Source of the DNA: Candidatus Aenigmatarchaeota archaeon
GTDB taxonomy: Archaea; Aenigmatarchaeota; Aenigmatarchaeia; QMZS01
Direction: 5' to 3'
Assembly: GCA_016932615.1 (NCBI GenBank)
Contig: JAFGCN010000007.1
Coordinates: 19,189-83,188, forward strand
DNA: 64,000 bases
Shown: positions 27,963 to 54,636 of the stretch, piece after piece
How the letters are laid out: each line of letters begins with the position of its first letter
Position numbering within the stretch: the first letter of the stretch is position 1
The notes under the pieces: model-generated
Seen by the model: the letters and a program-made list of their open reading frames with translations, nothing else
Told to the model about the DNA's origin: nothing
Databases searched by the model: none
Made by a program: the position numbers and the translations under genes

Positions 27963-28011
27963 AATATAATATACCTCAAGTTACCCTTTCCTTTATCAGG
28001 CCTATTCAAAA

Positions 28012-30280: not shown

Positions 30281-30409
30281 GCTTAAATATATTTAGCCGG
30301 GGATGCTATATATGCAAAGTGGTTTGTAGTGCTATTGTAATGGTTTTTGCAGACGTTCCTGCCACAGGGGGAAAACAAAAAAGCTGAAAAGTGAAAAGAA
30401 AATGTTGGA

Positions 30410-31189: not shown

Positions 31190-31375
31190 ATAAATAGATT
31201 GTCCTCTACAATATTTAAGGAAAAAATAATTCCATTACGCTCGTAATTGTTGGATACTTCTTGGAAGTCTTATCTGGCAGTAATTTCAAAAAATCGGGCT
31301 TAATGAATTTTATCCGGGAGTAATCAAACTGAACAGAATGAGTAAGAAAAATTAAGAGAAAAAATAAAACAAAAC

Positions 31376-36350: not shown

Positions 36351-36402
36351 AAGAGAATATATATAGGTAATGCCTAATGACTCTACTCTGGAACTTTAAG
36401 CG

Positions 36403-37626
36403 CTACTTGTTCCAGTGGTAAACATATAGCTCGACATACTTTCCAAGAACCGTGACGGGAAGTATGTTTGTCGAAGACCTTATATTCTTGCCTTTGGGAG
36501 GCACCGTTCCCGCCTCAAGGTAAGGCACTCTGTTTGGCTGGATTTCCTTGATTATCTTCTCTATTGTTTCGGCAGAATCAGAAACATCAGACAGGTCGTA
36601 CATCTGCCCTTTGGTGGTATTGGACATCTCGTCCATCCACTGGGAAAGTGTTCCTCTGCTGCACGAACAGTAATTGTCGGGCACAACTACGCTCTGGCAG
36701 CCCGCCCCAGTCTTTATTGTCCCACAGGCATCGCCTCTGAATGCAAATATGTAGACGTCATCCTGAGTCGCCCTCTTAAGCCCCCTGTCAAAAAGTGTTC
36801 TTGAGCCGCCAGAAGGGCAGCCGCACTCGGTTCCGCCAGGAAGCTCATCAGAAATAGGTATCGCGACTTTTATGACATTTTCTCTCCAGCCAAATTGCCC
36901 GGGTCCCTTGTAAGGCCCCATGGCAATTGCGCACTCGAGGCCTGCGCCCCAGTCCTCATCATTTGAGCCCTGTCCTCCGCAGGGGTTTCTGCATACCATA
37001 TTTTCATAATTCAAAGGCATGGCAACAACATGAAAATAATCGGTTTCCTTTGTTTCCTTTCTCACATCAAATGGAATCCAAGCGCCATTTTTCTGGATGC
37101 AGCAGCTTGGAGTCCCCAAAAGGAAAATGGTCATTTCGGCTTTCTTTCCATTAGCTCTAAGGTCATCAATGACCTGCGGCACATCGGTCACAAGGGCATA
37201 TATCTGCTCGCACATCGAGGCAGACGTGTCTACAACAGCAACAATCTGGACATCCGCAGAAACATTTGGGAATGGAATTCTAAGGTACCAGTTGCCTTTT
37301 CCGTATATGGCATCAAACTTCCACTCAAGCTCTTTTTTGACATCGATTTCCCCAACGCCAGGCCCAAAGTAAATTGTGGTGTTTCCAGACTTTGCTGCTA
37401 TTCCCAAAAGCTCTATCATAGTCTTTCCTGTTCGTGATTCCGTGGTGTAGAGTATAGAGTTTACTCCTGCCTTGAAGCTTTCAAGCTGCTGGCGTTCTGT
37501 CAGGTCTTTTGCGGTGTTCGTATAGTCCTTCATGGAAAAGACCCCTAAAAAGAAAAGAAGCCCAATAATAGCAACTCCAAGAACTACCATGCCAAGTATC
37601 TCAAACGTCTGTCCTTTTGCTTTCAT
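36403..37626 (-). CDS. pilin-like protein with vWA domain
   Basis: MKAKGQTFEILGMVVLGVAIIGLLFF (KG|Q...E prepilin signal); MIDAS VAVVDTSASM. Confidence 0.5.
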   Translation of the reverse strand: MKAKGQTFEILGMVVLGVAIIGLLFFLGVFSMKDYTNTAKDLTERQQLESFKAGVNSILYTTESRTGKTMIELLGIAAKSGNTTIYFGPGVGEIDVKKELEWKFDAIYGKGNWYLRIPFPNVSADVQIVAVVDTSASMCEQIYALVTDVPQVIDDLRANGKKAEMTIFLLGTPSCCIQKNGAWIPFDVRKETKETDYFHVVAMPLNYENMVCRNPCGGQGSNDEDWGAGLECAIAMGPYKGPGQFGWRENVIKVAIPISDELPGGTECGCPSGGSRTLFDRGLKRATQDDVYIFAFRGDACGTIKTGAGCQSVVVPDNYCSCSRGTLSQWMDEMSNTTKGQMYDLSDVSDSAETIEKIIKEIQPNRVPYLEAGTVPPKGKNIRSSTNILPVTVLGKYVELYVYHWNK

Positions 37627-38408
37627 ACTCTCACAATCAGCCGGTTAGGATACTCAAAAGAGGTTGCCAGCCGGTATGTCCCCTTTGATTTTATGTCTTT
37701 CATGTCAAGTTCGCACAGGAGCTTCCTGCAGTCCTTGTTCTTTAGCCCTATGCAAAGCTCGCCCTCTGAGTAGCTTAATGGATAATCAAGCGAGATTTTG
37801 GCTGAGGACTGATTCTTGCAGGAAGACTTTCCCATCATGCAGGCCCGGTCAAGAAAGCCCGCAATCCGGTCAAGCTGGCCGTCGACAACCGTAAGGTTCA
37901 GCCGCCCAAGCCCCACCTCCTTTTCGGAATATTTTATCGCAATGGGCATAATGTAGCTCATCTTGTTATCATAATATTCCCTGGAAAAGTTTCCCCTCCC
38001 AAAGGTCCAAGTCTTCCCAACCCTTGAGCCAAGGTCAGTCATCACAATCTCGCTTACTTCCACCCGAAAGCCAAAGTCATAGTTCCTTGCGCACATCGGC
38101 TCTATTCCCTGATACTCCAATGAAAAGCTGTCAAGCTTCTTTACGTCAACTATGTTTGCATAGGCGCTTTCGCCTGTCGGAAGCTGGTAAGCCAGGCAAT
38201 CCTCAGAGTTGGCAAGAATCAAGAGAACATCCGTTGCCGCGCTTCTAAGCTCCAGGTCCCGCTGGGCTTTCTCTTTCTTTACTTCCGACGAGTTCAGGAA
38301 CATTAGCAAAAAGAGAAGCAGAACAATCATCATCAGCATCGTAAACGGCTTTACGGTAAAACTCATCTGGCCCTTTATTCTCGTCATCCTATCAATCTTC
38401 GCCATCAT
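37623..38408 (-). CDS. class III signal peptide (pilin-like) protein
   Basis: RIKGQMSFTVKPFTMLMMIVLLLFLLMF N-terminus; 4-nt overlap with upstream gene. Confidence 0.45.
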   Translation of the reverse strand: MMAKIDRMTRIKGQMSFTVKPFTMLMMIVLLLFLLMFLNSSEVKKEKAQRDLELRSAATDVLLILANSEDCLAYQLPTGESAYANIVDVKKLDSFSLEYQGIEPMCARNYDFGFRVEVSEIVMTDLGSRVGKTWTFGRGNFSREYYDNKMSYIMPIAIKYSEKEVGLGRLNLTVVDGQLDRIAGFLDRACMMGKSSCKNQSSAKISLDYPLSYSEGELCIGLKNKDCRKLLCELDMKDIKSKGTYRLATSFEYPNRLIVRV

Positions 38409-38409
38409 G

Positions 38410-40905
38410 CTAATATACGCACTTCTCTACCCCTATCATCTGGCACATTCCTTTCGGGTTTTCACGGTTAAGTATGCAGGAAGGGTCAACCTTGCAATTA
38501 AGCTTCCTTATTCCACTTTGAGGGAATGCGTAGCCCGTATCATCATCAACTTTTCCTCCAAAGCCATATATCGAAGGGTCAATCTGCGGGTATGCCCCAT
38601 AGTCATTGTAGGCGATGCACATGTGGTCGCACCATTGGGTTCCTTCAAACGGCTTTATCTCATGCCAGGTAGCATCAAACCAAAGCCACTTCTTTTCGTT
38701 TCCTTTGCATGCAGAAAGAGTCAGGTGGTCGGGAAGGTCCGGGTCACAGAAGTATATGACATAAGCGTGCCTGAACTGCGGGTTTACCGAGCTTGAAAGA
38801 GTTGCATAAACATCATAGGGTGGGACGCCAAGAGTCCTTAAAATGGAAAGCATTGCAACTGCGTGGTCTCCGCAAAAGCCAATCCCATCGCAAAGCGGAC
38901 CTACATAGTCAACGCTTCCGCACCTGCCACAGGAGTCAGCGCAGCAGGTCGAATCGGTAAGGTTGTATTGCTCATTTGCCTCTATGGTCTTGCTTGCATT
39001 TTGGACGAAGCTTCCGTCCTCTGCAGGGGTGCATTTTCCTTGTGAGTTCCTTATTGTCGAGTACCTTGAGCCATCAAATGCAAAGCCAAGAGGATGCGGG
39101 GAGAGCAGGTCTTTTTCGACCTGCTTTATGTCCCATCCCCTCCGGTCAAGATACCGGATGACCGATTCAGAACAAATCTCAATTGCGCCATCTGTCCAGT
39201 AGACCTTATCATTCTGCCAGTTGGTTGGGTCTGTGTCGTAAAAGGCAGGAGACTTATCAAAATTATCGCTCTTATTCACCCTCACAGGGCAATAGCATCC
39301 GGGGGAACTGGCGCATGGGCCAGCCGAGTTGAATTGGCAACAGTCGGGGTCGCAAATCTCGGTATTGCCCTTGCAGTCGGGGTCGCAGTTTCCAGCAGCA
39401 AGAAGCTCCAGAGCGAGGTTCTCTGAAGTGTTATCTGGAGGGACGGCAAAGCTAGGCACATCTTTTACCGGAAGGCAGATGCCATCTCCTTCCCGAGTTT
39501 GCTTCCGGTCATTGACATAAGGGCAACCCGGGTGAAGCGAGCAGTCGGGGTCACAGTAATAATAATCGTCACTGGCTCCGGCATTGGACCAGCCGCCCGT
39601 CGTGTATCCGGTTCTCCAAAGGCAGTCAACCTGGTCGCAGATTCCGTCAACAGTCCTGTCGCATACAAGGTCAGAGGTCCTTATCAGCTGGGTTTCCTTA
39701 TTTTTTATCTGCGAAGCTGTGCAGTCAAGCGGGCAGGTATATGAATTCTCCCAATTCAGGGAGCTATCAACAGCAGAAAAGGCGGGAAGTGTGAATCCTA
39801 CCCCCTGAACTCCCTCAAGAGTCAGCAGGTCTTTTACTAACGGCGAAACCTCGCACTCGCCGTTGCCGCAACAGGCGGGCTTCGTGATGTCGCTTGCGTC
39901 AGCGCAGGTTTTTGTCCCTGGGCAGCAGACTTCAGGAATGTCCTTTGTGCAGCAGGAGAGGGCTATGCAGCTTTCCCCCACAAGGGCGCACTTGTCCTCG
40001 CAGTCCTCGTCAAGGTTGCAGTCGGGGTCGCATACGTTATTCGTGGCATTGCAGTCAAGGTCGCAGATTCCGTCAGAAGTCATTCTCAACGCCTCCCCAA
40101 CCATCTTTTCATAGCAGCCACTGTAGCAAATTCCATCTGCTTCGTCCTCGAACTTATCGCCATCGGAGTCCTTCGGCTTGCAGGCGGGGTCGCATACCCC
40201 TTCAAACCCTGCGGTCCCATTATACCTCTTGAAGCAATCCAGGTCACAGGCGGTTTTGTTCACATTCGCGCAGTCAGGATCGCAGATTCCATCCTCCACC
40301 CCGTCCTGTATGCAGTCCGTGTCGCATATCAGGTCATTTTCATTTGAATAGCAGTCGGGGTCGCATGAGCTATCCCCGCTTTTGGCGCAGTACTTGCTGC
40401 AAAAGTAGTCGGGTTCCTCCGTTTTGCAGTCGGGGTCGCACTTGAAGTCAAGAAGGCAGGCAGGGTCGCACACACCATCATTGAACCGGCAGATGCATTC
40501 TCTTGGGACGATGGTAATCTTCCGGTCATCCCTGTTCTTGACAAAGCACAATCCTTTTGGGTTCTCAAAAAAATATGGGCCCGAATGAATCAGCCCGGAA
40601 AAAGTCTTGCTTGCGGTTCCCTTGTCGTAAATGACCGTCACAATCTTGTTGTCAACCGTCAGGTTTACATTGACGCCTTCAGGAAGCTGGTAATAAGTCT
40701 GCTGGGAACCGGCAAGAGCTGCCGTCCGGTCTATTGCGTAAACAACATCACGTGCTATCGGCTCGATAGAGGAGGCATATGTATTTTCAGAAGACTGGGC
40801 AAAAATTCCCCTTACAACCAGAACTATGAGCACAAAGGACAGCAGCAGGGCAATAACATTTATCATGCTTTCTGAAAGTGCTGCATCGCCCTTCTTAAGC
40901 CCCAT
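38410..40905 (-). CDS. large Cys-rich DGICDPDC-repeat surface protein with C-terminal transglutaminase-like (papain-fold) domain
   Basis: 831 aa; pilin-like N-terminus KKGDAALSESMINVIALLLSFVLIVLVV; >12 copies of CDPDC/CDPAC/CDLDC motif; C-terminal GFCGDHAVAMLSILRTLGVP...H...D resembles transglutaminase-like core. Confidence 0.5.
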   Translation of the reverse strand: MGLKKGDAALSESMINVIALLLSFVLIVLVVRGIFAQSSENTYASSIEPIARDVVYAIDRTAALAGSQQTYYQLPEGVNVNLTVDNKIVTVIYDKGTASKTFSGLIHSGPYFFENPKGLCFVKNRDDRKITIVPRECICRFNDGVCDPACLLDFKCDPDCKTEEPDYFCSKYCAKSGDSSCDPDCYSNENDLICDTDCIQDGVEDGICDPDCANVNKTACDLDCFKRYNGTAGFEGVCDPACKPKDSDGDKFEDEADGICYSGCYEKMVGEALRMTSDGICDLDCNATNNVCDPDCNLDEDCEDKCALVGESCIALSCCTKDIPEVCCPGTKTCADASDITKPACCGNGECEVSPLVKDLLTLEGVQGVGFTLPAFSAVDSSLNWENSYTCPLDCTASQIKNKETQLIRTSDLVCDRTVDGICDQVDCLWRTGYTTGGWSNAGASDDYYYCDPDCSLHPGCPYVNDRKQTREGDGICLPVKDVPSFAVPPDNTSENLALELLAAGNCDPDCKGNTEICDPDCCQFNSAGPCASSPGCYCPVRVNKSDNFDKSPAFYDTDPTNWQNDKVYWTDGAIEICSESVIRYLDRRGWDIKQVEKDLLSPHPLGFAFDGSRYSTIRNSQGKCTPAEDGSFVQNASKTIEANEQYNLTDSTCCADSCGRCGSVDYVGPLCDGIGFCGDHAVAMLSILRTLGVPPYDVYATLSSSVNPQFRHAYVIYFCDPDLPDHLTLSACKGNEKKWLWFDATWHEIKPFEGTQWCDHMCIAYNDYGAYPQIDPSIYGFGGKVDDDTGYAFPQSGIRKLNCKVDPSCILNRENPKGMCQMIGVEKCVY

Positions 40906-40943
40906 AAATACAGTAATATAACTATTTGTAAAGAATCTGTATT

Positions 40944-43900
40944 ATGGAGTTGACATATTCTCCGGGCCAGAAAAACCGGAGCTTTCCCACTATCATGATA
41001 CTTGCACTGCAAGCCATTATTGCCGGCTTGCTGTTTTCACTGCCCGCATACGCAACAAATATAAGCTCCTGCTCAATCATAAGCGCCCCAGGAAACTACA
41101 CTCTTGTAGACAACATAACGCTCACGACAGGCCAAAACTGCATCGAGGTAAATATACGAGATGTAGTAATTGACTGCGCCGGAAACGCAATTGCAGGAAG
41201 CGGTAGCTCGGGCACTTCAGGAGTTTACGCAAGCAAGGACGGATTCATCCTGAGAAACTGCACAATTACAAATTTCCATAACGGCCTCCGCATGGAGGGG
41301 TCAAACAATGGCCTTGTCGAAAATTCCAGGATAATTGGAAACTACCGCGGAATTACCCTTTCGTATTCGGAAAACAATGCTATCTCCAACACGCTGCTTA
41401 TCCAGAACAACATCGGGGTGCAAATTTCCTTTTCCGAGAGAAACCGCTTCTACAACAATCTCCTGAATAACACCAACAACACGGTCTTTATTGGAACAAA
41501 CGAGAACACCTGGTATTCCAGCAAGGAAAAAGGCAAGAGGATATACTCTCCCGGAACTTATATTGGCGGAAACTACTGGTCAAACCCCGGTGGCGGACCC
41601 TCAGATTCCTGTAATGATGCAAACCGCGATGGGTTCTGCGATGAGCCGTACGAAATGGACCCTCAGAATAGGGACTCATTTCCACTAAGCAACAGGTACC
41701 TTTCCGACACCGTGCCTCCAACGATTATAATTAATTCCCCGAAAACAAACCAGATTGTAGACAATACCACAATAACCATATCGATTACCGCAAATGATGC
41801 CGTTTATGCTTATACCAACCTCTCGATAATGCAGGGAAACGAAACCGTAAAGAGTGCAGTCAGCACCAAGAACGGCACCTTTGAGGAAGACTTAAAAGTA
41901 AATAAGGGCGGCTATTACAACATAACCGCAACCGCCTACGACATGGACGGAAACAGCGCATCAAGCACTGTCTACAACATCCTTACCCCTCTGGAAGTCA
42001 CCTCCTGCTCAGACTTGAATGTTGCAGGGGAAAAATACACCGTCGAAAATACTATAACCCACACGAGCGGAAGCATATGCCTCAACATCCAGGCAGACAA
42101 CATCATTCTCGACTGCAAAAACCGGGCAATAACCGGAAAGGAAGCCGCATATAAGACCTACGGCATTTCGCTTAACGGCAGGAAAAACGTCACCATAAAA
42201 AACTGCATTGTTTCTGAGTGGGACTACGGAATATTTTCACAGTTCTCTACAGGCAACCACATCAACAACAACCTTGTCCTCAAAAACAGAAATACCGGGA
42301 TATACCTTTATTCCTCTGGCGGAAACGAAATCCAGGGAAATGTCATTGGCAATAATACCATGGGCATACGGCTCTATTCTTCTTCCGACAACAGGATATA
42401 CAACAATGTATTTAGCAACGAAAAAGAAGCTGGGTTTGAAGGGGAAACGCTGAAAAATTATTGGAACGTCGAAAAGAAAGAAGGCCTCAGAGTAACTTCA
42501 AAGGGCAGCAAAATTGGAGGAAACTTCTGGTCGGGAAAAGGAAACGATTACTCCATAGCATGCACTGACAAAGACACTGACGGGTTCTGCGATGAGCCCT
42601 ATGATGTCGGGTATGGAAGCCAAAATTCCGGCACTGGGTTCTTCCTGAAAGATATTATAACAGGCCTGTTTTTGACGCTCAGTGTTTTTGGCCCGCCTCC
42701 CGAAAGCAATAACATAGATTATCTTCCCCTGAGCGATGAGTTTGCGCCAGATGTTACGCCGCCTGCCACAAATATCACAATAACGCTTCCAAATGGGAAA
42801 GCTTATAACTCAAGCCAGTGGATAAGCGAAAATTATGTAAATGTAACCGCCTACTGCTCAGACGGGTACGGCTCAGGATGCAAGAGAATTCTCTACTGCA
42901 TAGACCGTTATGGAAACTGCACTCCTGAAACAACCTACAAGGAACCGTTCAAGATAGAGCCGGACAAAAACCTGACCGAGCAAATATACCTCAGGTACTA
43001 TAGCGTGGATAAGGAAGACAACAACGAAACAATAAAGATTGCAATGATAAGAAGCTTGTCATCCAGCCAGAAAGTCGTGATATCAAGCCCGCTTGAAGGC
43101 GACCAGTTCAACTCAACAAACATAACCCTGTCGGGAACTGTCCTGAGGGAAAACGAGCACAACACAACCCAGATTAACATATACAATTCAAGCGGAAACG
43201 TTACGCGCACAGTAACCATAACTGCAAACGGCACATTTGAACGTAACCTGACGCTACCCGGAGAAGGCACATACCTTGCAGAGGTAATTTTCAGAAGCAT
43301 CTATGGCTTTAACACCACAGAAAGTGAATTCAGCATAATTGTAGACCTGACCCCTCCGACAATCAGCTTCAAGCTAAACAAGGAGAAGGTATTTGAAGGC
43401 GAAACAATAATCGGAACGTGCAATGCGCAGGACAATTTTAAGGGGTCATTTCAGGGAACAATTACCGGGATAAATACCTCATCAGAAGGCGCAAAAAGCG
43501 CAACCTGCATAGCAATCGATGATGCCGGAAACATAGCACGGGAAACGCTGGATTATCTGGTAGAAGAGAAAGTATGCACCAAGGGCGAGAAAAAATGCGC
43601 GTCAAATGTCCTCTACCTATGCGAAGATAATGCCTGGACCGAAAAAGAAACCTGCGAGTACGGCTGCGATGCCAAGAACAAAGTATGCATCAGTGCTCCA
43701 AAGAATAATTCAAAAAATGGAACCATTGACCCCAGAGATGATGACCCAAATCAGGATGATGGCGATAAAGAACTAAACCCCACCGTAGTTGCAACAAGCG
43801 CATTCCTTCTGCTGTTCATTGTCGGAGTTATGGCATTCCTTTACTTCAAGATTTTCCAAAAGCCGACCTATGACTTTGACAAGAAGCTTGCATTCCTTGA

Positions 43901-44054
43901 AGCAAGGGTGAGAGAAGCCGAAAGCAAGGGAAAAGACACAACAAATGTAAGAAGCGAACTAGAGATGGCCGAGCAGGAAGTCAGCATGGGGCTTTTCGAA
44001 ATGGCAGGCCCAAGAATAAAAGCCCTTGAAAAAGACCTTAAACGGCTGAAGTAA
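40944..44054 (+). CDS. right-handed parallel beta-helix repeat surface protein with C-terminal TM anchor and coiled coil
   Basis: 1036 aa; signal peptide; two blocks of PbH1-like repeats (NCTITNFHNGLRMEGSNNGLVENSRIIGNYRGITL...); C-terminal VVATSAFLLLFIVGVMAFLYF TM. Confidence 0.5.
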   Translation: MELTYSPGQKNRSFPTIMILALQAIIAGLLFSLPAYATNISSCSIISAPGNYTLVDNITLTTGQNCIEVNIRDVVIDCAGNAIAGSGSSGTSGVYASKDGFILRNCTITNFHNGLRMEGSNNGLVENSRIIGNYRGITLSYSENNAISNTLLIQNNIGVQISFSERNRFYNNLLNNTNNTVFIGTNENTWYSSKEKGKRIYSPGTYIGGNYWSNPGGGPSDSCNDANRDGFCDEPYEMDPQNRDSFPLSNRYLSDTVPPTIIINSPKTNQIVDNTTITISITANDAVYAYTNLSIMQGNETVKSAVSTKNGTFEEDLKVNKGGYYNITATAYDMDGNSASSTVYNILTPLEVTSCSDLNVAGEKYTVENTITHTSGSICLNIQADNIILDCKNRAITGKEAAYKTYGISLNGRKNVTIKNCIVSEWDYGIFSQFSTGNHINNNLVLKNRNTGIYLYSSGGNEIQGNVIGNNTMGIRLYSSSDNRIYNNVFSNEKEAGFEGETLKNYWNVEKKEGLRVTSKGSKIGGNFWSGKGNDYSIACTDKDTDGFCDEPYDVGYGSQNSGTGFFLKDIITGLFLTLSVFGPPPESNNIDYLPLSDEFAPDVTPPATNITITLPNGKAYNSSQWISENYVNVTAYCSDGYGSGCKRILYCIDRYGNCTPETTYKEPFKIEPDKNLTEQIYLRYYSVDKEDNNETIKIAMIRSLSSSQKVVISSPLEGDQFNSTNITLSGTVLRENEHNTTQINIYNSSGNVTRTVTITANGTFERNLTLPGEGTYLAEVIFRSIYGFNTTESEFSIIVDLTPPTISFKLNKEKVFEGETIIGTCNAQDNFKGSFQGTITGINTSSEGAKSATCIAIDDAGNIARETLDYLVEEKVCTKGEKKCASNVLYLCEDNAWTEKETCEYGCDAKNKVCISAPKNNSKNGTIDPRDDDPNQDDGDKELNPTVVATSAFLLLFIVGVMAFLYFKIFQKPTYDFDKKLAFLEARVREAESKGKDTTNVRSELEMAEQEVSMGLFEMAGPRIKALEKDLKRLK

Positions 44055-44087
44055 GCGCACCCTAAACAGACAAGCATTTCTCAGCTA

Positions 44088-44657
44088 TCACTTTATTAGT
44101 GTTTCTGCTGTAACAAGCACTGAATGCTCACCGGTCTTGTTTATCGAAAGACGATAATTATATGTGGGATTGCTTCCCATTATGCGGGCAATCCTGCTGG
44201 AAAGAGTAGTCTTCATCGAGGGTGTCCCTATATACGTAAAGTTAAGGTCGCACCGCGATTCCCAACATTTCTTTGGAAGGTTTGTATCTGTATAAGCAAG
44301 TTGGTAGCAAAAAAAGTTTCCAATCGCGGACTTATTTTCCGAAATCATAACAGAAACTTTGTCTGGAGCAGGAATCATATCCGCCTTTGCGACATAAACC
44401 GCCTTGATATTTTCTGGAAGGGAGATATCGTATATCTCATAAGCGCCAGTTCCTTTACTAACACACATAGACCGGAGGCTATTCTGTAGGTTAGTGACCT
44501 CATCAAGAATGAGCCGGTCGGAAACACTCTGAATCTGGCCGCTTATGAGAACATATCCTGCAAAAAAAATCATCAGCCCGAACAAGACGCTCCCAACAAC
44601 CCATATCCACGAAGCCATTCCTTTGGCAATGCCTTTCATGATGCTAGTAGCCACCAT
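44088..44657 (-). CDS. class III signal peptide (pilin-like) protein
   Basis: MKGIAKGMASWIWVVGSVLFGLMIFFAGY N-terminus. Confidence 0.4.
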   Translation of the reverse strand: MVATSIMKGIAKGMASWIWVVGSVLFGLMIFFAGYVLISGQIQSVSDRLILDEVTNLQNSLRSMCVSKGTGAYEIYDISLPENIKAVYVAKADMIPAPDKVSVMISENKSAIGNFFCYQLAYTDTNLPKKCWESRCDLNFTYIGTPSMKTTLSSRIARIMGSNPTYNYRLSINKTGEHSVLVTAETLIK

Positions 44658-45321
44658 ACTCGGGTGGGCTCGGTCCGGAAAAACTCTCTGCAGAAGGAGC
44701 AGAATCCTTTCTGCGCTTTAATCGCCACATTAGTAAAATAGCCAGGATTATTACTAGGAAGATTATTCCAATCACCCAATAATTGGTTTCCTGTGTTTCG
44801 CCATTCTCTATGTCTGGAGCGTCTTCACCACTCTCTGGACCGATCTCTAAAGATGACCCGGGGTTTTCAGAAACTATGCAGGCAGGAGAGTACATTGAAA
44901 CGTCAAGATTCGCCAGAGTACTATTCTGCTCATCATAAATTTTTATCATGGAAGCGTCCCTAAAATAGGGCACAATAAGGGTCTTGTTGAAGCTTTCGAC
45001 GAAATAAGGGCTTCCCGGGTCTTCGCCTTCCCTTGGCGGAGGCGGGAATATGATCTGATTAGTGCCATACCTGAAGGAATAAAGCACTTCCCCCGAGCAG
45101 GAGATGACTTCACAGGTGTGCCCCGACTCCGGCTGAATAAGCCGTTCCGGGAAATACCCTCTGCCAAGCTTAACCGCTGAATAATCCAGCTCGCCCTGGC
45201 TGTAGTGAATATCCACGACATAAATCGTCCCAAAAGCCCCCTGTACAGGGGCAAAACACACCAAAAAAGCAAATAAAGCCCCAAATATCCACGACCCCAT
45301 AACCTTAAACTCAATTTCCAT
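44644..45321 (-). CDS. secreted protein with C-terminal TM anchor
   Basis: signal peptide, C-terminal WVIGIIFLVIILAILLMWRLKRRK anchor. Confidence 0.35.
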   Translation of the reverse strand: MEIEFKVMGSWIFGALFAFLVCFAPVQGAFGTIYVVDIHYSQGELDYSAVKLGRGYFPERLIQPESGHTCEVISCSGEVLYSFRYGTNQIIFPPPPREGEDPGSPYFVESFNKTLIVPYFRDASMIKIYDEQNSTLANLDVSMYSPACIVSENPGSSLEIGPESGEDAPDIENGETQETNYWVIGIIFLVIILAILLMWRLKRRKDSAPSAESFSGPSPPEYGGY

Positions 45322-46759
45322 AGTAATCTAGCTGGCTCTCTATCTGAGCCAGGCAAACCGAACAAAAGCCATACCCTAGGTCCTTCATTATGCAGGAGTC
45401 GCTTGGCCGGTACCAGTTCGTATAGGAACATTCCCTGATGCAATCCATGCCCTGCCCCTCCCAGTCAGTGCAGGAAGGGCTCTCGTCGCAGTTGGGCGCC
45501 TCTTCAGGCATGCTTGTCGGCTGCCCATAGGAGTACTCGTCATAAAGCTTTCCAAAAGCGTGCCCAAACTCATGCACTGCTGCTTTTGTCTCGCTTCTCG
45601 CGACCACAGAAATTCCTTCCGTAATATATCCTCCCCCACCATAGGTCTCGCTGTCAAAGAGAACAATAATCTGGTCAGACGGACACCTCATGGCAAAAGT
45701 CTTTGTTTTTGGAACGTCACAGCAGATGAGCCGTGCAATGCCGGCGCAATTATAGTAGCACCCCAGGTCCCCGGAAAGATTGACCATATAGACATTTATC
45801 TTATTCACATTTTCCTTAAACGGGGAATATGAGAGCAGGGACTCAGTGTGGTTTTGGACATCGCTTCTGAATTTAGACAGGTCTACATAGCCATGCCCGA
45901 CAAAAACCACATTCAGGTTGCTTGATGAAGGACCTGTATGAATAAGGGGGATGCAATATTCCCCAACGGTTTCATTGCCTGCAGAATCTGCAACCCTGAA
46001 CTCCACCCTTGCCTCAGAAGACCTGCCGAAAGCATCATCTACCTTCAAAGTTGCTGTGTGAATTCCCAGGTCCATGCTGGATACCTCAATGACCGATTTG
46101 TTTCCCAGGTGCTTTCCGTCCAGTTCCCAGCCATAATTGTAAGGTGCTTTTCCGCCAGAAATCCACGCCTTAAACGTAATCGTTTCGTCCATTCCATATT
46201 GCGTCCCATTCACGGGAAGAGATATGAGGGCGGTCACATTTCCGGCACTGGAGGTATTTCCTCCGGTATTGCCGTTATCTGAAGAGAATACATTAAGGTC
46301 CCTTACCGATATATACCTTCCATCTGCAACGTAGGAGATTTCCACAAGCGCATCCTTCGCGCCTACAGACCACTTGAGCTTGTCCTGGTCATCATACGAT
46401 TCTGATGTGCAAAAGCTGCAGTTGCCTGTGGAGCAGATATTATTCGGAATCTGCTTGCAATCAAGCTGCTGAGTAACAGTCCTTTCGGTGAAATTCCCTG
46501 TCGCATTGACGATTATTTCTGCGCAAATGTCTGAGGAAGGGTCAAGCCCGCCGCGATGGTTTTCCCAGCAAAGCTCTATCTCTTCAGCAAGCCGTTTTGA
46601 GACATGGCTTGTGTCTCCAAACAAAACATCATCCGCACTCGTGTCAAAAACCCCGGAATACCTTGCGATGAAATAAAACATAATCGCCCCAATTACAAGC
46701 GCTATTATAAGGTACATATAATCCGTAAGCGTGTCCAGTGCGCCCTTCATCTTAGCCAA
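45311..46759 (-). CDS. M64 (IgA-peptidase-like) zinc metallopeptidase with pilin-like N-terminus
   Basis: VHEFGHAFGKLYDEY matches M64 HExxH...DEY signature; N-terminus MKGALDTLTDYMYLIIALVIGAIMFYF. Confidence 0.55.
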   Translation of the reverse strand: MAKMKGALDTLTDYMYLIIALVIGAIMFYFIARYSGVFDTSADDVLFGDTSHVSKRLAEEIELCWENHRGGLDPSSDICAEIIVNATGNFTERTVTQQLDCKQIPNNICSTGNCSFCTSESYDDQDKLKWSVGAKDALVEISYVADGRYISVRDLNVFSSDNGNTGGNTSSAGNVTALISLPVNGTQYGMDETITFKAWISGGKAPYNYGWELDGKHLGNKSVIEVSSMDLGIHTATLKVDDAFGRSSEARVEFRVADSAGNETVGEYCIPLIHTGPSSSNLNVVFVGHGYVDLSKFRSDVQNHTESLLSYSPFKENVNKINVYMVNLSGDLGCYYNCAGIARLICCDVPKTKTFAMRCPSDQIIVLFDSETYGGGGYITEGISVVARSETKAAVHEFGHAFGKLYDEYSYGQPTSMPEEAPNCDESPSCTDWEGQGMDCIRECSYTNWYRPSDSCIMKDLGYGFCSVCLAQIESQLDYYGN

Positions 46760-47639
46760 TAAGGACTATCTCAGTCACGCTTTCGTCTTCAGCAACGCCA
46801 ACGTGCCGGGCAACCCCATCTCCAACAACTGTGACCTTAACAAGCTTAATCAGCTTTCCGTACGAAGATTTTACCCCCTCCACTTCGGTTGCTTCAATGT
46901 CAATGCCCTGGTCGACTATATACTGGCTTGCAAGCTCAATTGCCCGCTCATCCGACAAAGCCATTTCCGCATACTCACATGCGTGGCTTTCCTCATCGCA
47001 TACCTCACCAGGCATGAAGCACTCACAGTCAAGGCAGCAGTTGTCAGGCCCCTCATAAAGCTCACACTTGCCGTTTCCGCAAACAGAGATCACGCAGTCC
47101 TTTTCCACATCAGAGCAGTAAGCTCCTTCGCTGCAGGTGCAGTCCCCCGGAGTATTTACGCAGTTTTCGCCAAAGGATTTCTCACAGATTCCGTTTACGG
47201 CTGCCTTCTTGGTCTCTGTGGCATTGGTCTGGACAACGGTATCGTTCTTCACAGGTTCCTGGGTCTGAGTGGATTCGTCCACGCAAAGCTTTTGCGCCTC
47301 AGAGCATATCTTGCTGCCTGTGCATTTACAGTCCTCAGAAGTAACGCAGTTTTCCCCATATTCTTTCTGGCAAATCCCATCACCCTCATGGCTTTCAGGA
47401 GAATCAGACCCGCCCGAGAAAAATATGAAATAAATCATGACCAGCACCACAAGGCCAATGACTACATAGATGACCTTGGTATAATCTTTCGAGCCGCTTT
47501 GGGCTTGACTAGATGCCTCTGGAGTTGGCATTGAAGGATAATCTTCGTATTGATTTATCAAAGTACCCATAATAGAGACCAAGGAATATATATTATATCT
47601 GACACTGCAGAAGTATATGGTAGCTCGTGCTCCAAGCAA
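46752..47639 (-). CDS. membrane-anchored Cys-rich repeat protein
   Basis: TM helix VIYVVIGLVVLVMIYFIFF then two DGIC.K.FGENCV...DC.C repeats. Confidence 0.35.
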   Translation of the reverse strand: MLGARATIYFCSVRYNIYSLVSIMGTLINQYEDYPSMPTPEASSQAQSGSKDYTKVIYVVIGLVVLVMIYFIFFSGGSDSPESHEGDGICQKEYGENCVTSEDCKCTGSKICSEAQKLCVDESTQTQEPVKNDTVVQTNATETKKAAVNGICEKSFGENCVNTPGDCTCSEGAYCSDVEKDCVISVCGNGKCELYEGPDNCCLDCECFMPGEVCDEESHACEYAEMALSDERAIELASQYIVDQGIDIEATEVEGVKSSYGKLIKLVKVTVVGDGVARHVGVAEDESVTEIVLIG

Positions 47640-47681
47640 GCACTATCTATAGCGCAAGTGCCAAAAACAGAAGCCGCCAGA

Positions 47682-50087
47682 TTATGCGCTAAACCCCTTC
47701 TTTATCTTCAGCGTTGGGTCTCCAAGCAGGCAGTTGATGTGGTAGTGGTACATCTGGCCATAAGGACAGTTATACTTTGGGAAATATGCGTTTTTGCCTT
47801 CCCTGTAGGCATCCCCAATCCGGACGCCCTCCTTAAAGCGTAATGCAATCTCAACATACAAAGAGCCAATGGAATTGTCTCCACCCAAGACATAGCAACT
47901 TCCGAGGGAGCCCAGATTGTTATCTGTGCTTCCGAAAAAAACCGCGCCTCCATTCTTAAGGAAAGTCATTGCAATCGAGTCTGAAGTTGTTTGCTTCAGC
48001 GCAAGGTGCGCCCCGCCACAGGCCATAGTCATCCAGACTGTATTCTTGACACTTATGCCATTGACAAAGCTTGGGCCTACATTAAAGCCCCCTCCATAAT
48101 AAAGATCCTCTCTCGCCGGGCCAGGACCATGTGCAAGAATCATGACAAAGCCCTTGTTGCTTGTGCTTGATGGGCCAAGATTTCCACAGCATCCGCTGCA
48201 GGCCTGGCATGAGGAGCCATAAACGGCCGAGCAAAAACACTTGCCGGAGTTCCATTGTCGATTGTCGAGACCACCACAACCCATAATCGGCGAAACCTTA
48301 TTGGATAAGGATACGCCGCCAGACTTGTGAAGCCCTATTGCAGTATCAAGGGCATTCAGGATTACGTCCATATCTCCCTTCGCTGGATCAGGGAACCTTC
48401 CAACAGAAATATCCATCAAGTACTTTCCGCCATCCCCATTGTCGCTTATGTCACCATATGGGGCGTCAGAGCCGGTCGAGGCAACTGAAGTCTGAGGGAA
48501 CCTTGCATGGCCTCCAATAATTATCAGGTACTTCGAATCAAGCTGCTTTATCAGGGGAACCGTCGTCGCCCGGATGTTTCTCCAGTCCTTGGGGCTAGTG
48601 ACTTTCTTTCCGCAGATATCTTCAACTTCATCGCTGTCAAGGTATAAAAACATTGAGCCGAGGCCATCTGAAGAAAGGGCGGACCGGAAGTCCTCAATCT
48701 TGTCCTCAAGCCGGCTTATGTCCCCTTCAGAATAAACCCCCATATTGGCCTTGATTGCGACAATCAGGACGTCCGCTCTGTCAACACATTCTCCCTCATC
48801 CTCGCTCCACATGTAGCCCAATGGACAGCAGTGGCCTCCCGTACAGGAAAGACCTGAGGAATTATCACACTGGCTGGAGCAGGCGCACTTTTCTCCCTCC
48901 TTCAGCCCCATTTCCGTAGAGCATCCATAGGAATTTCCAAGTGAGGCATATGAAGGGCAGCATACCATCCCTAAGTTTTCGCAGGTCACTCCTTGTGCAG
49001 GGCAATCCTTGCTGCAGGTTTTGCAGTCCTCCATCGCTTCCACAGAACACTTTCCATTGCCGCAGCATTCCGTAAGGTTATTGAAGCCCTGAAAGCCCTT
49101 GGGGCAGTCGGAGTCATTGTCTTCCCTCTCACAACTCATAGAGCAAAATCCGTTGCACGTCTTGTCGCAGACATAGCAGGCACTCGACAAAAGGCCGCCG
49201 GGGTTTCCATCAGACTCGACGCCATCGCAGTCAGGGTCGCACATAGTCAGGTTCTCCGCGCAGTCCGGATCACAGACTCCGTCCACAACACCCATGCTGT
49301 CCGGGTCACAAATCCCGTCAGGCGAATTCACGTTCTGCCAGGCGCAGTCCGGGTCGTATGCCCTCTGCGGGTCAAAAAAGTTATTGTAGCAGTCAAGGTC
49401 ACAGATTCCGTCCATGTCGACGCCCGATATATTTCCATTCCCATCCGAGTCAACGCAGTCGATGTCACAGGGTGTGCCATCACCGGTGCCCTCCTGGTAG
49501 CAAAGGGGGTCGCATACCCCCTCCATATAAGAGCACATAACTTCACAATTGTCATCATAAGGGTCGCATCCTTCTTCAGTAACCGTAATTATAATATCAC
49601 CCTGCGGCGCTCCCTCAAACTTAAGCTCAAGCTTGTCCCACATTTTTATCGGGTAATTTCCCGGATTGCCCCGGATTATTACTGCCCCAATTCCAATCGG
49701 CTCAAGGTCACGCCGGTAGAATATCTGGCTGGCATTTCGCCCAAGCTCCATGCTCTTCATAAGGACAGCTATATCCTCTTTGGTAAGCGAAAAGCTGGTC
49801 TGGACACTTGTCTGGTTTGATGAGCATTTTCCGTCATACATTGCCTGAAGAATCGCTTCCATATCCTTTTGCGCTACCAGTTTACCATTGTATTCCTGGC
49901 AAATATCATAGCTTTTCCCGAATGCTATCGAGCCAGCTGCCTCCCTAAAAACAGAAGCAAACTTTTCGATAGGGGATCCGATTGCTTCGGAGCCAACAGA
50001 AGTAAGAAATCCGATTGAAACCGCAATAGAAACAAGGACTATGAGCATCAAAGCAACAGACTCAAGCTCCATAATATATCGAACCAA
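47682..50087 (-). CDS. large Cys-rich DGICDPDC-repeat surface protein with C-terminal clan-CD (clostripain/gingipain-like) cysteine peptidase-like domain
   Basis: 801 aa; hydrophobic N-terminus; CDPLC/CDIDC/CDLDC/CDPDC repeats; C-terminal ...MILAHGPGP...WMTMACGGAH suggests His-Gly / Ala-Cys catalytic dyad. Confidence 0.4.
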   Translation of the reverse strand: MVRYIMELESVALMLIVLVSIAVSIGFLTSVGSEAIGSPIEKFASVFREAAGSIAFGKSYDICQEYNGKLVAQKDMEAILQAMYDGKCSSNQTSVQTSFSLTKEDIAVLMKSMELGRNASQIFYRRDLEPIGIGAVIIRGNPGNYPIKMWDKLELKFEGAPQGDIIITVTEEGCDPYDDNCEVMCSYMEGVCDPLCYQEGTGDGTPCDIDCVDSDGNGNISGVDMDGICDLDCYNNFFDPQRAYDPDCAWQNVNSPDGICDPDSMGVVDGVCDPDCAENLTMCDPDCDGVESDGNPGGLLSSACYVCDKTCNGFCSMSCEREDNDSDCPKGFQGFNNLTECCGNGKCSVEAMEDCKTCSKDCPAQGVTCENLGMVCCPSYASLGNSYGCSTEMGLKEGEKCACSSQCDNSSGLSCTGGHCCPLGYMWSEDEGECVDRADVLIVAIKANMGVYSEGDISRLEDKIEDFRSALSSDGLGSMFLYLDSDEVEDICGKKVTSPKDWRNIRATTVPLIKQLDSKYLIIIGGHARFPQTSVASTGSDAPYGDISDNGDGGKYLMDISVGRFPDPAKGDMDVILNALDTAIGLHKSGGVSLSNKVSPIMGCGGLDNRQWNSGKCFCSAVYGSSCQACSGCCGNLGPSSTSNKGFVMILAHGPGPAREDLYYGGGFNVGPSFVNGISVKNTVWMTMACGGAHLALKQTTSDSIAMTFLKNGGAVFFGSTDNNLGSLGSCYVLGGDNSIGSLYVEIALRFKEGVRIGDAYREGKNAYFPKYNCPYGQMYHYHINCLLGDPTLKIKKGFSA

Positions 50088-50125: not shown

Positions 50126-50671
50126 CTAAATAATCTCCAGGCGATGGTCAAATGCATTGTACTTGACAATTATTGTTACCTCTTCACCGGAAATGTCGCC
50201 AATCTTCCACAGGAGGCGATTTGAAGCTCCACAGTCCGTTCCCGACTTCTCCACATCCAAGAAATTGTTTGGGATTGTATCGCAAAGCCCCCTTTCCTCG
50301 AGAAGTGAAGTAAACGTTTCTTCCGTTATAGTTCCGCTTACCTCCCAGACAAAAAGCTCATAGCAGGTGTAAGTCATTCCGCCCATCCCCTCGTCATTAT
50401 TTTCCCAGCACTCCTCTGCATACTGCAGGAGCGTGGCATCGTCAAGAGGGTACTGGAGTTCCTGCCTTGCCGAAGTGTGCTTAAGTCCGCACTGGTCAAG
50501 TGATGGCTTCAGGTGGTGAGGAATTGGAAGGGCTGAAATTGCATTGCCTATGCCGCAAAAAGTGTTTCCGGTTGCGCCCGGGAGCATGCCCTCTATTATC
50601 AGCAAAAAGAAAGCAACGGCAAACAGGGCAACGATAAGCTCAGCTATTGTTTTAAATGCAAGCTCCACCAT
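50126..50671 (-). CDS. class III signal peptide (pilin-like) protein
   Basis: MVELAFKTIAELIVALFAVAFFLLIIEG N-terminus. Confidence 0.4.
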   Translation of the reverse strand: MVELAFKTIAELIVALFAVAFFLLIIEGMLPGATGNTFCGIGNAISALPIPHHLKPSLDQCGLKHTSARQELQYPLDDATLLQYAEECWENNDEGMGGMTYTCYELFVWEVSGTITEETFTSLLEERGLCDTIPNNFLDVEKSGTDCGASNRLLWKIGDISGEEVTIIVKYNAFDHRLEII

Positions 50672-50707
50672 AACTTAACAGCATTTTATTAGTCTCTAGA
50701 TTATCTG

Positions 50708-51142
50708 TCAGCTAACAAAAACCTGCCTTCCGGTGTTGAGATACTCTATCCTTAGGTGGTCTCTTGACAGGTTGGAAGGAAGGTAGACCTTCTCTTGGAG
50801 CTCAATCCGCAAGAGCTGCCTTATCTCAAGAGGGCTTGCAGAAAGTCCTATTTCAGAGCCAGATGTCAGAAGGTAGCAAACTGTATCCTCCCGCTGGCTT
50901 TCCGGAACCTTCAAAATAGCATCATAGCAGTTTTCAACATACCCTGCAATATCCCCGCTCGAAAAAGATTTCTCCTGAATAATTTTTGGAAATTCCTGGA
51001 CTCTGCCAGAAGGGTTTAAAAGATTCTGAATGCGGCCCTTGAGGTCGTTATGCCCTACTATGAAATATGCATTCACTATACCTGCAACAGCAACAAGAAC
51101 TAAAAAAAGAATCACCGTTTCCCGGGTAAGTTCACACTTCAT
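50708..51142 (-). CDS. pilin-like small protein, paralog of 51146-51586
   Basis: N-terminal TM; shared C-terminal block CYDA...DTVCY.L. Confidence 0.4.
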   Translation of the reverse strand: MKCELTRETVILFLVLVAVAGIVNAYFIVGHNDLKGRIQNLLNPSGRVQEFPKIIQEKSFSSGDIAGYVENCYDAILKVPESQREDTVCYLLTSGSEIGLSASPLEIRQLLRIELQEKVYLPSNLSRDHLRIEYLNTGRQVFVS

Positions 51143-51145
51143 AGT

Positions 51146-51586
51146 TTAGCTTACAATTATTTCATCCCCCAATTCCTTGAACTCTATCTTAAGGTGTGTT
51201 TGCGTCAGGTCTGTTTTGAAGTGCAAGTCTTGCCTAATCTTTGCCGAAACTGCACTCCTTATCGCATCGACACTTGTAAAGCCGGAAAAATCGGAATCTG
51301 CCAGAAGGACATAGCAAACAGTATCCTTTTGCTCAACCTCTTCTACCTCTGTCAGGGCATCATAGCAGCTTTCTATATACTGGGCGATGCCTCCTGGAGA
51401 AAAAGTGCTTTGCTCATATGTTTTTGGAAAGTCTGTCTGCAGCTTTTTCTTGTCGGGTCCAAAAAGGTCTTTTACCGCGTTTTTCGAGTCGCCAGAAAAC
51501 CTCATGAAAAGCCCTATTACGATTGCCGCAACAACAAGTATTATCAGAAATTTGACAACCATGTCCAGCGCCAATTCGCCTTTCAT
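51146..51586 (-). CDS. pilin-like small protein, paralog of 50708-51142
   Basis: MKGELALDMVVKFLIILVVAAIVIGLFMRF classic prepilin-like N-terminus. Confidence 0.45.
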   Translation of the reverse strand: MKGELALDMVVKFLIILVVAAIVIGLFMRFSGDSKNAVKDLFGPDKKKLQTDFPKTYEQSTFSPGGIAQYIESCYDALTEVEEVEQKDTVCYVLLADSDFSGFTSVDAIRSAVSAKIRQDLHFKTDLTQTHLKIEFKELGDEIIVS

Positions 51587-51620
51587 AATCTAAAGGCCTT
51601 TTTTAAAATTAGTTTAGACA

Positions 51621-52973
51621 TCATTTGCCTGCAATGGCCTGGTTCGAGTAAACCGCCTTCCTGACGCCGCCTGCGTGATAAGTCACTTTAGCAATGTTAA
51701 ACTGGTAAGTGCCGCCAAGCCCGACTTTTGGAACTATCGTGTAGGTAAATACTCTGGCTTCCCTCGGCTGGATGCTTGGAATCTTCCAGACAATCTTGAT
51801 ATCGTCGCCTTTCCTGTAAAAACCCACCGGCTCGACTCCCGAAAAGCGGCGCTTTATCCTGAAAATCGGCTGGACGAAGTCCTCAATGGTAAGGTCCCGG
51901 ATTTCGCGCCAGGAACGGTTTGTAACCTCAAGGCAGATTCTTATCTCAGTGTCACTTTTTATGTGTACGATTTTTCCCATGACGCTTTTTTTGACCTCCA
52001 CTTCAGTCCTGAGTATCATGGCAAGCAGCACAACTAGGCAGATAGCCACGAAAAAGCCGATAAAGATGAGGTGGTAATTGTACTGGTGGGTAAATGTCCT
52101 GGTCTGCCCTCCTGAGACGGAAAGTTCCCAGATATATTTTGTAACTCCGCCCTCCCGCACCTTTGTAAACGGCTCTGAAGAGCTTATAAGCGGCTCAAGG
52201 TAGCTTTCTGTCTCCAGCTCGTAAATTTTGGTTTCAGTGCCCCTTCCGTTGTTGACCAGTGTCACGGTTGTAACAGATGCGAGCAGGGAATCTTTGGTTT
52301 CCTCGTAGACCTGAAGCTTCGAGCCATATTGCCAGTAGTATGATTCCTGGCCAGAAAAAAGTGCAGTTTCATCCTTGCGGACAGCATAGCTCATCGAGTA
52401 GGTTCCTGTCCCCAGCCCCTCAAAATCCGGAAGGTTGCTAAAGGAATCCCTTCCCGGGCCAATAAGTTCAGTAAACTCTTCAATTGGGGTGTTATTCAGG
52501 GAAAGAACCGCTTCAAGGGCAAGCCCCTCTGTGGTGTAAACGTCCAGCTTAAAGCCATTCTGGTCAAACTTTGCCCCCAGAAGCTCGCTTTTCGGCTCTT
52601 CCGGGACATTAAGCTTAGTCACTTCCAAAAGAATATGGCGGCTCAAGTTGTCCAGCCGGGAAGTTGCCATGATATCGAGGGCATATATGTCAGGCGCCAC
52701 ACTAAGGTCGGGGGCAGCCACAATGCTAACCTCCCTCATTTCGCCCGGCTCAAGGACAACCTGGGAATCGGTTATAAATACCCATACAAACCAGCCCTTT
52801 ACGAAAAGCGAGTAAACAACCGGAGAATCGGACGGATTTGCCAGAGTAACCTTGAAAGAGGTGCTCTTTAGAGGATCCACCTTTACCCAGCTTTCACTAT
52901 CCTCAGCAATGCAAGGGACTATCAGGATGAAAGAAACCGCCAGCAAAAGTATAAGGTAAGCCCTAAACTCCAT
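51621..52973 (-). CDS. secreted/membrane-anchored surface protein, hypothetical
   Basis: 450 aa; signal peptide, central TM LIFIGFFVAICLVVLLAMIL. Confidence 0.35.
   Translation of the reverse strand: MEFRAYLILLLAVSFILIVPCIAEDSESWVKVDPLKSTSFKVTLANPSDSPVVYSLFVKGWFVWVFITDSQVVLEPGEMREVSIVAAPDLSVAPDIYALDIMATSRLDNLSRHILLEVTKLNVPEEPKSELLGAKFDQNGFKLDVYTTEGLALEAVLSLNNTPIEEFTELIGPGRDSFSNLPDFEGLGTGTYSMSYAVRKDETALFSGQESYYWQYGSKLQVYEETKDSLLASVTTVTLVNNGRGTETKIYELETESYLEPLISSSEPFTKVREGGVTKYIWELSVSGGQTRTFTHQYNYHLIFIGFFVAICLVVLLAMILRTEVEVKKSVMGKIVHIKSDTEIRICLEVTNRSWREIRDLTIEDFVQPIFRIKRRFSGVEPVGFYRKGDDIKIVWKIPSIQPREARVFTYTIVPKVGLGGTYQFNIAKVTYHAGGVRKAVYSNQAIAGK

Positions 52974-53180: not shown

Positions 53181-54636
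<1,456 letters not shown>

Follow-up and report, generated by a model that had tools for sequence, protein, structure and literature searches.

The window analysed in this work is a stretch of 64,000 nucleotides from a genome of Candidatus Aenigmarchaeota (DPANN; contig JAFGCN010000007.1, positions 19,189 to 83,188), and this report is devoted to two of its genes, here called A and B, which encode large cysteine-rich proteins. Both proteins have the same three-part build and consist of an N-terminal module with a hydrophobic helix, a homologous stalk of about 200 amino acids (aa) and a C-terminal cysteine-peptidase head. In our opinion, A and B are probably paralogous modular minor (tip or surface) subunits of a surface assembly similar to type IV pili or pseudopili. 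The N-terminal module would serve as a membrane anchor, which in A has type IV pilin features, and the stalk would be a rigid spacer poor in secondary structure, whose 10–12 or so Asp-rich Cx3C units may be braced by two disulfides per hairpin and probably by bound Ca2+. The heads are predicted to be intact cysteine peptidases, with a LapG-like Cys-His-Asp triad in A and a C25 gingipain-like His/Cys pair in B. The assembly itself would be built from neighbouring small proteins and would present A and B as minor or tip subunits. The proteases would then be held tens of angstroms off the membrane and might cut host surface layers or proteins scavenged for nutrients; in a DPANN archaeon that presumably depends on a host, their use on the host envelope or in peptide scavenging is plausible, if speculative.

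Gene A (38410-40905) is an open reading frame (ORF) with an ATG start and encodes 831 aa, and gene B (47682-50087) is an ORF with a TTG start and encodes 801 aa. Both lie on the minus strand, as do all their parts described below, and they were found where an earlier reading of the window from its letters alone (hereafter, the sequence-only reading) had located them. An NCBI entry encoded on a 163-kb contig, 'MAG: transglutaminase family protein [Candidatus Aenigmarchaeota archaeon]', matches the product of A with 100% identity. A hypothetical protein of the same contig, P0075, is 100% identical to B over 796 aa; in the NCBI version, B starts five codons later, at the ATG at 50072, and is 796 aa long. 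Residue numbers of P0075 given below refer to this start, so that its H648 and C685 are His653 and Cys690 of the 801-aa form. Both ORFs are real genes, and the identity of their products to NCBI proteins of Aenigmarchaeota places the organism among the DPANN archaea; the window also contains a complete 16S rRNA gene of archaeal type (53182-54636, plus strand). Cysteine accounts for 69 residues of A (8.3%) and 52 of B (6.5%). For the motif CD.DC the count is 10 in A and 4 in B, far above chance, the means for shuffled sequences being 0.06 and 0.02. The broader motif C[DN]xxC has 6 matches in B and 13 in A, of which 12 fall at aa 146-522 and the remaining one (C759) belongs to the head. Each protein contains only two copies of the strict pattern DG[IV]CD[PLI]DC.

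The stalk of A (aa 137-352, 39850-40497) comprises twelve Cx3C units, at positions 146, 156, 169, 181, 194, 208, 220, 238, 260, 281, 292 and 302, which are followed by a CC...CCGNGECE segment. The stalk of B (aa 171-350, 49038-49577) is homologous to it according to hhalign (probability 99.5%, E 1e-22, 184 columns) and to a joint alignment, and contains about nine Cx3C units, five or six of them of the CDxxC type. In the joint alignment 24 Cys are invariant and in register between the two proteins, and therefore the stalk is one ordered domain of about 200 aa rather than the loose array of repeats that the sequence-only reading had described. Its count of a dozen or more repeats in each protein holds for A only if all Cx3C units are included (12 in the stalk and 4 in the linker) and is too high for B. 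A near-invariant Asp is present inside and beside each Cx3C unit. In the AlphaFold2 model of A, built on 62 sequences, the mean confidence score (pLDDT) is 81; the stalk is modelled with pLDDT of ~85-94 and with hardly any regular secondary structure, one-turn helices at the Cx3C units being the only such elements. In both proteins the stalk is followed by a further Cys-rich part. In A this is a variable linker (aa 353-540, 39286-39849) with a CPLDC and three more CDPDC units (391, 451, 507, 518), which has pLDDT of 31-57 over aa 400-530 and is absent or replaced in many homologues. In B it is a second Cys-rich segment (aa 351-437, 48777-49037) of the form CCP...CxC...CCP, all the Cys of which are invariant in 36 homologues.

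The cysteines of the stalk change in pairs. Among the 62 A-type sequences, C194 and C212 are both present in 23 and both missing in 37, and no sequence has only one of them; on a neighbour-joining tree, this pattern calls for four or more independent changes. C194 is the first Cys of one unit and C212 the second Cys of the next, while almost every sequence retains the inner C198 and C208. Other paired columns are C313/C327 (both present in 25, neither in 34, a single one in 1) and C318/C334 (53, 7 and 1, respectively), and in the B family both Cys are missing at the homologous position (AYDPDC ... CDPDS). In twin-Cx3C, or CHCH-type, hairpins the Cx3C pairs are bridged by an outer and an inner disulfide. 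Because the Cys of adjacent units are gained and lost strictly in pairs, a ladder of such hairpins is preferred here, and adjacent stalk units most likely pair as twin-Cx3C hairpins, each with an outer and an inner disulfide. The resemblance to a cystine knot, which had been suggested from the letters of the sequence, was set aside given the same strict pairwise covariation. Thrombospondin type 3 repeats are likewise Asp-rich and disulfide-braced, have little secondary structure and bind Ca2+. The stalk differs from these repeats and from the CHCH hairpins in having up to twelve concatenated units in an extracellular archaeal protein and in showing no Pfam or PDB similarity. The stalk of B also contains an EF-hand/dockerin-like loop, DSDGNGNISGVD (aa 213-224, 49416-49451), read from the sequence as the pattern D-x-D-x-N-G-x-I-x-x-x-D. 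This pattern is conserved among homologues, two of which match EF-hand_5, and it hints at Ca2+ binding.

The sequence-only reading could name no family for the repeat, and database searches agree with this. The isolated stalks of A and B have zero matches in Pfam at E<=10, and the stalk alignment profile (A5) matches zero chains among PDB sequences at E<=10. Given these null searches, identification of the stalk as thrombospondin type 3, EGF, DUF4215 or another named repeat was rejected; DUF4215/myxo_disulf_rpt matches another protein of the window (31376-32815) and neither A nor B. When 1.84 billion representative proteins were searched with a profile, the stalk turned up in only 63 clusters (53 at E<=1e-10), so the architecture is indeed as unusual as had been supposed. 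Where the N-terminus is complete in these clusters, the stalk always begins at about residue 125-170. Nearly all the recognisable heads carried by it are peptidases, and they belong to six families, namely C25, reprolysin-like M12, transglutaminase-like, M64, papain C1 and subtilase S8; beta-helix or FG-GAP modules are also present in weaker relatives of A. Since anchor and stalk together carry at least six peptidase families across the lineage, they would constitute a display platform with exchangeable heads, and the stalk itself appears to be a platform restricted to this lineage, with proteases as the heads mostly exchanged on it.

The head of A (aa 541-831, 38413-39285) looks catalytically competent and, as modelled, has a transglutaminase-like or papain-like fold with a conserved Cys-His-Asp triad. 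The catalytic candidates are Cys678 (GFCGDHA, 38872-38874), His713 (HAYV, 38767-38769) and Asp744 (DAT, 38674-38676). All three are unchanged in 19 full-length homologues and show at least 90% conservation across the 62 sequences, and their order and context are as in the transglutaminase core (G-x-C / H-[AS]-[WYV] / D-x-T). The corresponding Pfam family, Transglut_core (PF01841), is matched at E<=0.01 by 36 of the 62 A homologues, with a best value of 8e-8. The predicted structure of the head (pLDDT >90) has the three-dimensional fold of the transglutaminase core, and the six best Foldseek matches of the A model are all LapG, a bacterial transglutaminase-like cysteine proteinase, with 18-19% identity over ~100-130 residues.

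The head of B (aa 438-801, 47685-48776) looks, from its sequence and model, like a catalytically competent clan-CD peptidase of the C25 (gingipain) type with a conserved His/Cys dyad. Pfam Peptidase_C25 matches B with 35.4 bits (cut-off 23, E 9e-9) and is also matched by 21 of the 36 B homologues (best 4e-22). The catalytic candidates His653 (LAHGPG, 48129-48131) and Cys690 (MACGG, 48018-48020) are invariant in 19 homologues and are preceded by predicted strands (642-646 and 679-683 in P0075 numbering). With the B model (pLDDT 82), Foldseek retrieved gingipains at E from 9e-13 to 8e-11, including RgpB (4ief/1cvr, 9e-13/1e-12) and Kgp (4rbm, 4.5e-12); the alignments cover ~400 columns with template modelling (TM) scores (target) of 0.53-0.57 and 15-16% identity, and the next matches are the clan-CD proteases CHAT and separase. 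Neither Por_Secre_tail nor another C-terminal sorting domain was detected in B with NCBIfam and Pfam, and the protein ends with the peptidase domain. Profile searches of the full-length families against PDB were uninformative, and the fold assignments therefore rest on the predicted structures: the A family had no match, and the match of the B family to scarabaecin covers 21 residues only and is due to chance. The motifs from which these two domains had been proposed by the sequence-only reading, G-x-C-x-D-H-A ... H ... D in A and His-Gly and Ala-Cys-Gly-Gly in B, are present and invariant. The LapG-like model of A, the C25 score of B above the Pfam cut-off and its structural match to RgpB and Kgp confirm both proposals, as does the conservation of the putative catalytic residues, which the same reading had recommended to check.

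Protein A begins with a short basic leader ending in Gly, MGLKKG (aa 1-6, 40888-40905), which is followed by DAALSESMINVIALLLSFVLIVLVV. This succession of a basic residue, Gly and a hydrophobic stretch is similar to class-III signals, and the leader may be removed by a prepilin peptidase. In the A family [KR]G is conserved together with the xxx[LI]SE and the hydrophobic helix that come after it, and E12 is kept in at least 90% of the 62 sequences. The remainder of the module (aa 7-133, 40507-40887) is modelled as a pilin-like 'lollipop', in which a continuous 52-residue helix (12-63) is packed on a seven-strand sheet (68-133), with pLDDT mostly >90 over aa 50-133. The 'lollipop' of helix and beta-sheet is the defining shape of type IV pilins (PMC8179133). 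The N-terminal module of B (aa 6-170, 49578-50072) is predicted to consist of a hydrophobic helix and an alpha/beta module, with helices 3-27 and 34-49 and then an alpha/beta domain with pLDDT of ~90 (P0075 numbering). The N-termini of its relatives vary and are represented by MKG followed by IAVD, by ME... or by Sec-type signals. A third group of stalk proteins has textbook class-III-like signals, for example MEKRG followed by ATVLNYVLMIGLL, and P0142 combines a clear RG-type leader and a full C25 head in one stalk protein. A related N-terminal module gives only a weak match to DUF7266. Canonical archaeal pilins (KG followed by VSPV..., Pfam Pilin_N) are encoded at other places in the window. 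Thus, of the prepilin-like N-terminus that the sequence-only reading ascribed to both proteins, the hydrophobic character stands for both and the basic Gly-ended leader for A, while B has no leader. The pilin reading is good for A and weaker for B.

Genes A and B belong to a group of about 20 minus-strand genes (27318-52973), nearly all of which encode N-terminal hydrophobic segments, and many products of the part 32902-52973 have [KR]G-type or very short leaders. The conserved cluster numbers ~11-16 genes, mostly with similar N-termini, and is also found in four other loci. Elsewhere in Aenigmarchaeota contigs the gene order, with product lengths in aa, is ~145, ~185, B-type, ~190, ~155, ~190, A-type, ~255, ~430, ~365 and ~285, and the minimum conserved across loci L001-L005 is A with the next two genes. 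As A and B are located in a conserved cluster of genes with similar N-termini, the mechanism with minor subunits is considered the most likely one. The products of three genes coupled downstream of A (35337-38408, minus strand), 261, 407 and 337 aa long, all begin with a class-III-like N-terminus of the [KR]G type. A and these three genes abut or overlap one another at their start and stop codons, which suggests co-translation of a complex, and the 261-aa and 407-aa genes come after A in every related locus examined.

Several observations weigh against a pilus-like assembly that carries intact peptidases. Pilin profiles (Pfam Pilin_N, N_methyl and TadE; NCBIfam) match neither A nor B at E<=0.1, and NCBIfam gives no match of any kind for either protein. 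An assembly ATPase (T2SSE/FlaI), a platform protein (TadC/FlaJ) and a prepilin peptidase (A24) were absent from the sizeable ORFs of the window and from the 10 kb around the four related loci, with other pilin-like genes as the only pilus-related neighbours; FlaI and FlaJ have been reported for most metagenome-assembled genomes of Aenigmarchaeota (PMC8407114). B has neither a basic leader (M-ELESVAL...) nor a Gly before its helix, and the helix is broken. In four B-type relatives (P0107, P0112, P0116 and P0118) a plain Sec-type signal peptide stands directly before the conserved YDVCEA motif and replaces the long hydrophobic helix, so that the B-type anchor module is dispensable. The disulfides of the stalk, proposed for an organism of a presumably anoxic habitat, are suggested by covariation only. 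A itself scores 13.8 bits against Transglut_core (E 0.073), below the cut-off of 23 bits, and judged by its sequence the head may either cleave or cross-link proteins.

These points give room to other explanations. The main rival of the pilus-like assembly is that A and B are plain signal-anchored (type II) membrane ectoenzymes, tethered by the helix, with the stalk lifting the protease through the S-layer and with no pilus assembly at all. This is possible, although somewhat doubtful for the two proteins together, and it is especially plausible for B. However, the [KR]G and the acidic residue conserved in the A-type and third N-terminal types would be needless for a mere anchor, the continuous 52-residue helix predicted to lie on a sheet is a pilin hallmark (PMC8179133), and the proteins are co-inherited with many small proteins that share the N-terminal type. 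As to the enzymes, it is unlikely that the head of A is a true transglutaminase (cross-linker) or a cell-wall isopeptidase and not a LapG-like endopeptidase; in such variants it would cross-link subunits of the pilus or S-layer, or cut pseudomurein-type isopeptide bonds of a host in the manner of PeiW.

The stalk could also be regarded as a metal-binding module, in which Cx3C cysteines and flanking Asp chelate Zn, Fe or other metals for metal capture or redox reactions. Cx3C units flanked by invariant Asp resemble metal-binding motifs, and a reducing habitat is probable, because an [FeFe]-hydrogenase-like operon is encoded. Nevertheless, we consider this explanation improbable. The strictly paired loss and gain of C194 and C212, by the side of a near-invariant neighbouring pair, is more readily understood as the loss of one of the two disulfides of a hairpin than as damage to a site with four ligands, and the stalk always lies between the anchor and the enzyme head, in the position of a spacer. 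A further possibility extends the pilus-like assembly to a lineage-specific protease organelle, a grappling device which breaches a host's S-layer or cell wall and takes part in attachment of DPANN archaea to hosts. Its tip or surface subunits would present changeable proteases (transglutaminase-like, gingipain-like, M64, reprolysin-like, papain and subtilase) on rigid twin-Cx3C stalks braced by disulfides and Ca2+, the whole organelle being encoded by the conserved cluster. We regard this extension as rather unlikely; if true, it would provide a concrete molecular mechanism for DPANN-host attachment and for access to host resources.

The closest known counterparts of the pilus-like assembly favoured here are modular type IV pilins. 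Modular pilins, including those with peptidase modules, are widespread in bacteria, and 264 architectures have been catalogued (PMC8179133). In these proteins, of which PilB of Streptococcus sanguinis with its vWA module is an example (Raynaud et al. 2021, PMC8179133), a small pilin module is joined to a bulky C-terminal functional module, as is proposed for A and B. They have a short leader ending in Gly, a helix of ~50 residues and a beta-sheet, and are thought to sit at the filament tip (PMC8179133). A and B, unlike them, come from a DPANN archaeon, match no pilin profile, contain an interposed Cys-rich stalk of ~200 aa and, with their relatives, bear cysteine- or metallo-peptidase heads of six families; their incorporation into a filament is only inferred. 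In archaea, transglutaminase-family surface peptidases have been linked to type IV pilus loci (arCOG02164, arCOG09555 and arCOG03450; Makarova et al. 2016, PMC4858521), and the modular-pilin interpretation of A and B fits this link. Compared by description, these peptidases are similar to A in being transglutaminase-like and genomically associated with archaeal pilin genes. They differ in being separate proteins of Methanococci, Methanobacteriales and Methanomicrobiales loci, for which that work describes no fusion to a pilin-like module by way of a Cx3C stalk.

LapG (PDB 4fgo, 4fgq and 4u65) has the core fold and the Cys-His-Asp triad in common with the head of A and is a protease that works outside the cytoplasm, on a surface adhesin. 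It is, however, a small soluble periplasmic protein of 181 aa, whereas the A head comprises ~290 aa, has extra Cys-rich elements and is fused to stalk and anchor. The gingipains RgpB and Kgp (C25, clan CD; PDB 1cvr, 4ief and 4rbm) are cell-surface proteases and share with B the whole fold of the catalytic domain and the His-Gly and Ala-Cys motifs after hydrophobic strands. In contrast to them, B is devoid of the C-terminal T9SS (type IX secretion system) sorting domain and shows no sign of a gingipain-type propeptide; it would be attached through the N-terminal anchor and stalk, and gingipains are attached via bacterial type IX secretion and the anionic lipopolysaccharide (A-LPS) route.

In the literature searched, no description was found of the A/B family, the stalk, DUF7266, or C25 or transglutaminase pilin fusions in DPANN. 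Transglutaminase-like and C25 peptidases, class-III-type N-termini and the modular pilin concept are already known; what is added here is a stalk domain, an archaeal setting, a panel of protease heads that can be exchanged and a conserved gene cluster. The attachment of DPANN archaea to their hosts and the exploitation of these hosts are largely unknown, and Aenigmarchaeota have no cultured representative. The locus offers a defined, conserved and experimentally tractable candidate set for host interaction, with two cysteine proteases, a metalloprotease and adhesin-like neighbours. With it, the 'modular pilin' idea would be carried over from bacteria to archaea and would come to include, besides binding modules, a panel of proteases. 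The concatenated twin-Cx3C stalk is a new protein domain, which as a rigid spacer braced by disulfides could be of interest in protein engineering. Should the pilus link not hold, A and B are still rare stalked ectoproteases of moderate interest.

Other genes of the cluster show related features. The 407-aa protein encoded downstream of A (36403-37626, minus strand) has a class-III-like N-terminus (MKAKG followed by QTFEIL) and an invariant, MIDAS-like D133-x-S135-x-S137 in 16 homologues. Identification of this protein as a vWA protein was not adopted: the DxSxS motif is a hint only, there is no Pfam vWA match, and the PDB profile search gave spurious matches to antibodies. The genes between B and A (44088-47639, minus strand) encode a Cys-rich membrane protein of 295 aa, an M64-like protein (482 aa) and, with N-terminal hydrophobic segments, two further proteins of 225 and 189 aa. 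The 295-aa protein (46752-47639, minus strand) contains 7% Cys, duplicated DGIC...C.C modules and a CGNGKCE motif like those at the ends of both stalks (CCGNGECE in A and CCGNGKCS in B); it has zero Pfam matches at E<=10. The M64-like metallopeptidase (45311-46759, minus strand) has a KG-type N-terminus (MAKMKG followed by ALDTL), and its N-terminal module (aa 57-107) resembles a 181-aa protein encoded upstream of B (50126-50671, minus strand; phmmer E 4e-7 in a local set). Judging from this similarity, the two look like another pair of a small module and its version with a grafted head, here without a Cx3C stalk.

Upstream of B (50126-52973, minus strand), genes for small proteins of 181, 144 and 146 aa and for a 450-aa protein follow in an order that is repeated in L001, L004 and L005. 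The three small proteins have very short leaders (MV, MKC and MKG) and hydrophobic helices, and paralogy was found for this group of genes. Divergently from A, a gene on the plus strand (40944-44054) encodes a surface protein of 1036 aa of the NosD/beta-helix type (Pfam NosD 9e-42, Beta_helix 4e-27) with Ig-like domains and a C-terminal membrane helix. Only 38 bp (40906-40943) separate the start codons of the two genes, and the pair is repeated in the close relatives (L001 and L002). In L005, which lies on an 840-kb contig, a glycosidase of the GH43/GH32 type (487 aa; 8512-9975, plus strand) is encoded just upstream of the A-type gene, in the slot occupied by a small pilin-like gene in other loci.

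Several further features of the window were noticed. At 27318-32815 (minus strand) an archaeal signal peptidase I of the SipW type (TIGR02228, E 7e-28) adjoins three paralogues with camelysin/TasA-type SipW-dependent signals, two of them with vWA domains and one with the myxo_disulf_rpt/DUF4215 Cys-rich repeat. This set looks like an operon for a TasA-like fibre, or one similar to archaeal bundling pili, with adhesin subunits. At 17558-20813 (minus strand), 21966-23168 (plus strand) and 25736-26932 (plus strand) lie a HydABC-like set, with genes for the large subunit of an [FeFe]-hydrogenase and for its NuoF-like and NuoE-like partners, and a DEAD-box helicase gene flanked by two YcaO genes. 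After the 16S rRNA gene comes a methyltransferase gene and not a 23S rRNA gene, and the rRNA genes are therefore unlinked here. An Rfam tRNA spanning 191 nucleotides (26993-27183, minus strand), which was not reported by ARAGORN, is probably an intron-containing archaeal tRNA.

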